Both the position numbers and the translations under genes were made by a program. The notes under the pieces are model-generated. The model saw only the letters and a list, made by a program, of their open reading frames with translations. It did no database searches and was not told the origin of the DNA. Of a stretch of 64,000 nucleotides of DNA, positions 43,548 through 43,563 are shown one piece after another. Source of the DNA: Escherichia coli (GTDB lineage Bacteria; Pseudomonadota; Gammaproteobacteria; Enterobacterales; Enterobacteriaceae); the NCBI RefSeq assembly GCF_003334385.1, contig NZ_QOWN01000009.1; one strand, written 5' to 3'. Every line of letters starts with the position of its first letter. The first letter of the stretch is position 1.

Positions 43548-43563
43548 CAGTTACCCGTAACAT
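43548..43563 (+). promoter_or_regulatory. GntR operator in the gntK promoter
   Basis: cagttacccgtaacat matches the ATGTTACCCGTAACAT GntR operator consensus at 13 of 16 positions, about 30 bp upstream of the gntK start. Confidence 0.75.

Follow-up and report, generated by a model that had tools for sequence, protein, structure and literature searches.

A 16-mer upstream of Escherichia coli gntK as the probable second operator of an overlapping GntR pair, and TTG as the probable gntK start codon

Between gntR and gntK of Escherichia coli lies a 16-bp sequence that resembles the operator of the gluconate repressor GntR, and the reading frame that follows it can be opened at more than one codon. 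Is this 16-mer an operator for GntR, and at which codon is translation of gntK initiated? Both questions were addressed in the window, i.e., the whole 64,000 nucleotide stretch of E. coli DNA that was analyzed (from contig NZ_QOWN01000009.1); all positions given are those of this stretch. The reading that we favor, with a probability of about 0.95, is that the 16-mer is the second operator (O2) of the CRP-dependent gntKU promoter, and that gntK starts at the TTG at position 43594.

The order of genes, yhhW-gntR-gntK-gntU-yhgN, is that of the E. coli chromosome; yhhW, located near gntR, is an ORF for a pirin-like protein, and asd is also found among the surrounding ORFs. Positions 43300–44120 match K-12 MG1655 at 100%. 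The window is reverse-complemented relative to K-12, and a window position is obtained by subtracting the K-12 coordinate from 3621186. A 901-nt query spanning the site gave matches in 5425 of 5426 complete E. coli genomes, with 96.6–100% identity among the records listed, and the annotation was gntR, gntK, and gntU throughout the genomes matched. The gntR gene (42460–43455, + strand; named gntR in RefSeq as well) is an ORF of 331 aa for the gluconate repressor, which despite its name is a LacI-family protein, and its product is recognized by the NCBIfam equivalog NF011563, “gluconate operon transcriptional repressor GntR” (776 bits; cut-off 433). The gntU gene (44125–45465, + strand; 446 aa; a RefSeq CDS, NF007781 with 916 bits) specifies the low-affinity gluconate transporter and is co-transcribed with gntK, its GTG start codon being located 3 nt past the gntK stop codon. 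For comparison between species one genome per species was scanned, which gave 80 loci from Enterobacteriaceae whose GntK shares 90% identity or more. In 78 of these 80 species a gntR-like C-terminal motif was present no more than 500 nt upstream of gntK.

The 16-mer cagttacccgtaacat is located exactly at 43548–43563 on the + strand. The initial annotation took it to match the GntR operator consensus, and this was borne out, as it agrees with the published consensus ATGTTACCCGTAACAT, quoted in full in PMC10450161, at 14 of 16 positions. Compared to the half-site pattern ATGTTA-N4-TAACAT it has two mismatches, i.e., 10 of the 12 half-site positions are identical. The site that had been recognized is however only half of the element. 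A second site, O1 (ATGTTACCGATAACAG), which had been missed, is found at 43535–43550 on the same strand and is the best match in the window, with a single mismatch to the half-site pattern (11/12) and 13 of 16 positions identical to ATGTTACCCGTAACAT. The centers of O1 and of the flagged site, O2 (CAGTTACCCGTAACAT), are 13 bp apart, and the two sites overlap by 3 nt to make up a unit of 29 bp. Because of this overlap the two palindromes cannot both be satisfied at once.

With up to two mismatches allowed, ATGTTA-N4-TAACAT is found four times in the 64-kb window against 1.7 times expected, and 5 of 100 shuffled controls reach four matches, so that one two-mismatch site is insignificant when taken alone. 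It is the context, i.e., the tandem location, the regulon specificity and the conservation of the 29 bp, that makes the O2 match non-random. Two of the four matches in the window sit 13 bp apart in the gntR–gntK intergenic region, and in K-12, where 21 kb around gntT, edd, and idnK were searched, each of the five matches to the pattern falls in a regulatory region, that of gntT, edd, or idnK/idnD. The two other matches in the window, 59272–59287 and 38260–38275, have two mismatches each, and one is in the glpE–glpD intergenic region while the other is inside yhhZ. They look like chance occurrences, and their number fits the 1.7 expected. A 17-nt pattern, ATGTTACNNNGTAACAT, had no match in the window; the operator pattern proper is 16 nt long.

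The 29-bp unit of O1 and O2 was found with at most three mismatches in every one of the 80 species. All but two of its 29 positions, including 15 of the 16 in O1, are invariant in at least 79 of them. Only two operator positions vary, 43549 and 43563. The first is in the middle of the 3-nt overlap and is A in 48 species and T in 32, where A favors the O1 palindrome and T favors the O2 palindrome. The second is the last base of O2 and is A in 72 species, T in six and C in two; E. coli carries T at this position, which brings its O2 nearer to a perfect palindrome than that of most relatives. Just downstream of the 29-mer identity drops to 0–0.6, and 43563–43582 is the least conserved stretch.

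Among outgroups, both operators are kept in Cronobacter, an O1-like site only is found in Erwinia, and an O2-like site only, TTGTTATCGGTAACAT, in Pantoea allii. The loss of one or the other site in the last two indicates that the pair is specific to a clade and is not obligatory everywhere. The leader from the operator to the TTG is 72–85 nt long at eleven loci of the Klebsiella/Raoultella group, compared to 16–43 nt in all genera outside this group, which implies an insertion of about 45–60 nt in the 5′ UTR of the former.

That two overlapping GntR sites, 13 bp apart, precede gntKU is already known. The pair is described as functional in PMC4052901 (citing Tsunedomi 2003a), the overlapping arrangement is kept in over half of the GntR-regulated operons (PMC4052901), and the O1 16-mer was bound by GntR in a gluconate-responsive manner in a synthetic switch (PMC10450161). 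The flagged motif is hence O2 of the known O1/O2 pair. Taken together the match and its conservation support that the 16-mer at 43548–43563 is a GntR operator, whereas binding by GntR and functionality of the pair are taken from the literature.

It could be argued that O1 is the only GntR operator here and that O2 owes its conservation to something else, such as being initially transcribed sequence or binding the paralog IdnR/GntH. Known structures do not easily accommodate two LacI-type dimers centered 13 bp apart (PMC4052901), Erwinia keeps O1 only, and in the synthetic switch the best response was obtained with O1 alone, tandem repeats being of no help (PMC10450161). On the other hand, O2 is closer to the consensus than O1 (14/16 against 13/16) and is invariant at 14 of its 16 positions across the 80 species, Pantoea has kept the O2-like site and not O1, and for the overlapping arrangement PMC4052901 reports experimental function at gntKU along with the wide retention mentioned above. 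We consider it improbable that O1 acts alone, and O2 is treated as a GntR operator in the following.

The gntRKU control region is a long-characterized E. coli system in which the operator pair, the dependence on CRP and the TTG start are already known. The K-12 gntKU promoter-operator (Tong et al., 1996; Izu et al., 1997; Tsunedomi et al., 2003a, as cited in PMC4052901 and PMC12195362) is the same locus and does not differ; the overlapping 13-bp GntR pair, the CRP site and the gntK start of NP_417894.2 are shared. The operators of gntT, edd-eda, and idnK/idnDOTR are the same 16-bp palindrome with at most two half-site mismatches, located in the promoter regions of genes for gluconate and idonate, and among them the gntT site ATGTTACCCGTATCAT has served in a cell-free biosensor. 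In K-12 two sites each are present at gntT and edd, about 140 and 220 bp apart, respectively, while a single site is present at idnK/idnD. Unlike gntKU, none of these loci has a 13-bp overlapping pair at up to two half-site mismatches. The same arrangement is described for overlapping 13-bp operator pairs of the LacI family, for which gntKU is a cited example (Ravcheev et al., 2014, PMC4052901), and the geometry of binding to such pairs was left unsettled in that study. The LacI-type GntR of Pseudomonas belongs to the same family of regulators and has the same role, i.e., it represses gntK and gntP and is relieved on gluconate (PMC12195362), but its operator, AG-N2-AGCGCT-N-TCT, differs in sequence and a 13-bp overlapping pair is not described there (PMC12195362).

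Upstream of the operators a cAMP-CRP binding site, aaatTTGAagtagcTCACActt, is located at 43462–43483 on the + strand. Its core, TTTGA-N6-TCACA at 43465–43480, is invariant or nearly so across the 80 species, and the site is listed for gntKU in PMC2395238 with a weight-matrix score of 13.1 at position -171. Conservation also points to a promoter on the + strand, with TTGCTT (43508–43513) as the putative -35 hexamer and GACAAT (43531–43536) as the putative -10 hexamer; the latter is found in 77 of 84 loci, is part of a conserved block and is overlapped by O1. A spacer of exactly 17 bp, itself divergent in sequence, separates TTGCTT from the -10 hexamer in 75 of the 84 loci; with the last two bases left free (TTGCxx) the count is 81 of 84. 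This spacing is kept in Cronobacter, Pantoea, and Erwinia despite an unrelated spacer sequence. In three loci (L004–L006) the -10 hexamer reads GAGAAT; two of these, L004 and L005, were aligned, and both have an intact CRP site.

The hexamers so assigned would place +1 near A43544 and give a leader of about 50 nt; the sequences and their conservation were obtained directly, while the exact transcription start, like the assignment of the -35 and -10 hexamers, is a prediction. In 75 of the 84 loci the CRP site is centered at -71.5 relative to the predicted +1, and in four others at -82.5. A center at -71.5 is what would be expected of a class I CRP-dependent promoter. The two positions differ by 11 bp, or about one helical turn, so that the face of the helix is preserved. 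O1 would extend from about -9 to +7 and O2 from about +5 to +20, an arrangement suggestive of a steric block.

A simple sigma-70 scan revealed no promoter on the + strand. This is explained by TTGCTT/GACAAT matching the sigma-70 consensus at only 7 of 12 positions, as would be expected for a weak, CRP-dependent promoter. An alternative promoter, TTGTCC (43520–43525) and GATAAC (43543–43548) separated by 17 bp, was rejected as its -35 hexamer is in a poorly conserved stretch; it is also disfavored by the conservation of TTGCTT-17-GACAAT and of the CRP spacing in distant genera. The idea of a regulatory RNA or a structured leader was likewise rejected, as Rfam gave no match at E ≤ 1 within 42000–46500 and folding of the predicted leader was weaker than that of shuffled controls (z = +1.8). 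In the transcription-start tables of Kim 2012 gntK is absent.

On this layout, with the cAMP-CRP site followed by a weak sigma-70 promoter and then by the overlapping O1 and O2, O1 would cover the -10 hexamer and +1 and O2 the first 20 transcribed bases. When gluconate is absent GntR, encoded immediately upstream, would occupy O1 and O2 and block RNA polymerase. Gluconate would release GntR, and CRP-cAMP would then activate transcription of gntKU. From a presumably unstructured leader of about 50 nt, the Shine-Dalgarno sequence GGGGG would guide initiation at TTG 43594 to give the kinase of 175 aa, and gntU would be translated from the GTG that follows 3 nt after the gntK stop codon.

The second question concerns the start codon. 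The initial annotation had suggested TTG 43594 as the true start of gntK in place of an upstream start, and this suggestion is upheld by orthologues, by the Shine-Dalgarno sequence and by codon periodicity. TTG 43594–43596 opens an ORF of 528 nt that ends at 44121 (+ strand) and encodes 175 aa. A Shine-Dalgarno sequence, GGGGG at 43582–43586 on the + strand, is found with a spacing of 7 nt to the TTG, and its region forms a duplex with the anti-Shine-Dalgarno sequence ACCUCCUUA at -8.4 kcal/mol, which is in the top 1.3% of the 20-mers of the window; this strength, like the position of the start codon, was obtained directly. The feature is present in all 80 species (median -8.4 kcal/mol, range -5.6 to -11.8), often as GGGAGG or AGGAGG. 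When orthologues were aligned, the codon at this position was TTG in 77 species and ATG in three, i.e., Yokenella, Trabulsiella, and Buttiauxella, and it was ATG in the outgroups Cronobacter, Pantoea, and Erwinia; the alignment, the test by which the initial annotation proposed its start could be refuted, gave no support to an alternative start and favors 43594. From codon 2 onward identity by codon position is 0.91/0.99/0.725 in the 80 species, a periodicity that constitutes a coding signature beginning at codon 2.

The start is also consistent with what is known of the protein. All NCBI-annotated orthologues, from nine genera, have 13 residues ahead of MGVSGSGKS, which includes the P-loop GxxxxGK[ST] (GVSGSGKS at residues 15–22). 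Position 1 of the NCBIfam profile NF008583 corresponds to residue 1 of the 175-aa GntK, and residues 1–174 align with profile positions 1–174 at 373.6 bits (cut-off 265); TIGR01313, a GntK model, gave 241.7 bits (cut-off 113.75). Chain A of PDB 1KNQ has the same sequence at all 175 residues (100% identity), and its residues 1–175 correspond to residues 8–182 of the longest ORF. RefSeq/PGAP, K-12 NP_417894.2, UniProt GNTK_ECOLI, and PDB 1KNQ all start at TTG 43594, the N-terminus being MSTTNHDHH in the 1KNQ chain and in GNTK_ECOLI, and RefSeq/PGAP has the CDS at 43594–44121 in K-12 and in strains spanning E. coli diversity. 1KNQ cannot count as separate evidence for the native start, as its sequence is that of a cloned construct.

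For the native N-terminus or start, gntK is absent from the TRAINSPOTTER N-terminomics, the Ribo-RET preprint and the INRI-seq supplements, and a search of the literature on gntK TTG, gntKU, the gntK promoter, and thermoresistant gluconokinase returned nothing on the start codon. Purified GntK and mapping by primer extension are reportedly the subject of Izu et al. in 1996 (FEBS Lett 394:14) and 1997 (J Mol Biol 267:778). On the evidence from alignment and from initiation signals, translation of gntK very probably starts at TTG 43594.

Two other codons have served as the start of gntK in annotations. The first is the in-frame TTG at 43573–43575 (+ strand), which opens the longest ORF, of 182 aa (MYCGGTTLSTTN...), and is used in some O157:H7 records. 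The frame is indeed open from 43573, the 182-aa protein is found in public records on 25 contigs from O157:H7, and an in-frame TTG 21 nt upstream is present in several close relatives as well. This codon is however devoid of a Shine-Dalgarno sequence (+0.6 kcal/mol) and is located in the least conserved stretch, 43563–43582. The distance from the operator to the start varies between 16 and 85 nt through frame-breaking indels and takes all three residues modulo 3 among the 80 species, and in 36 of the 80 species there is no upstream in-frame ATG, GTG, or TTG before a stop codon is reached. Furthermore, some species have ATG at the position aligned to 43594, and the NCBIfam profile begins at the N-terminus of the 175-aa form. 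TTG 43573 is judged not to be the real start, and a 182-aa GntK seems to us extremely improbable. Initiation at the first in-frame ATG (Met14 of the 175-aa form; 43633–43635, + strand), which would leave 162 aa and make of the TTG a Leu codon in an untranslated leader, is just as hard to credit: ATG is the commonest start codon, this one was used in the original MG1655 annotation (ORF_f162, obsolete but still widespread, with 998 contigs), and the CRP site numbering of -171 in PMC2395238 counts from it, but codons 2–13 (43597–43632) show protein-level conservation in the 80 species, free of indels and with wobble at third positions, and are conserved in more distant genera too, a Shine-Dalgarno sequence is missing (+1.2 kcal/mol), a protein starting with MGVSGSGKS would lose the HIYVLM directly before the P-loop, and the NCBIfam equivalog spans residues 1–174.

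TTG 43594 being retained as the start of gntK, the 175-aa form is also the one found by exact look-up in UniProt and RefSeq on at least 1000 contigs. The warning of the initial annotation that a non-ATG start is prone to mis-annotation was well founded, since forms of 162, 175, and 182 aa all occur in public records, and mis-annotation of gntK is real but historical. As RefSeq/PGAP, NP_417894.2, GNTK_ECOLI, and 1KNQ already have the TTG start, the current reference annotation needs no correction. What had been noticed in the sequence is thus confirmed and its interpretation is supported, although it was incomplete with respect to O1 and was already known. The value as a discovery is small for the same reason, i.e., reference annotations already use TTG 43594, while the comparison across species confirms both the gntK start codon and the predicted layout of the promoter in a clean way that does not depend on annotation. 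There is also a lesson for annotation, as three N-termini of gntK circulate and the CRP site was numbered from an obsolete ATG in one comparative study.

The representatives of GntK clusters range from 149 to 225 aa. One of them, a Salmonella-like gntK product of 196 aa with 226 member sequences, starts with MLPITVTRNN..., as gene callers read in frame from the ATG in operator O1, ATGTTACC.... O1 is in frame at loci where the distance from the operator to the start is 28 nt, for example L011 and L024.

The TTG itself is kept in 77 of 80 Enterobacteriaceae, with ATG in Cronobacter, Pantoea, and Erwinia and in three scattered genera, and conservation reaches 96% at the first base of this codon, compared to a mean identity of 72% at neighboring third codon positions. 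It is tempting to speculate that TTG may be a selected low-efficiency setting for GntK synthesis rather than a product of inertia, and that the overlap of O1 and O2, with its A/T toggle at 43549, may reflect an unconventional binding of two dimers 13 bp apart; taken jointly these two proposals are tentative and rather doubtful.

Finally, a hairpin of 11 bp followed by a U-run is located at 44150–44175, inside codons 9–20 of gntU, and resembles an intrinsic terminator or attenuator. The ratio of GntK to GntU could be set by this hairpin. A similar one of comparable predicted stability is found in most of the 80 relatives, and it is weaker in Salmonella arizonae.
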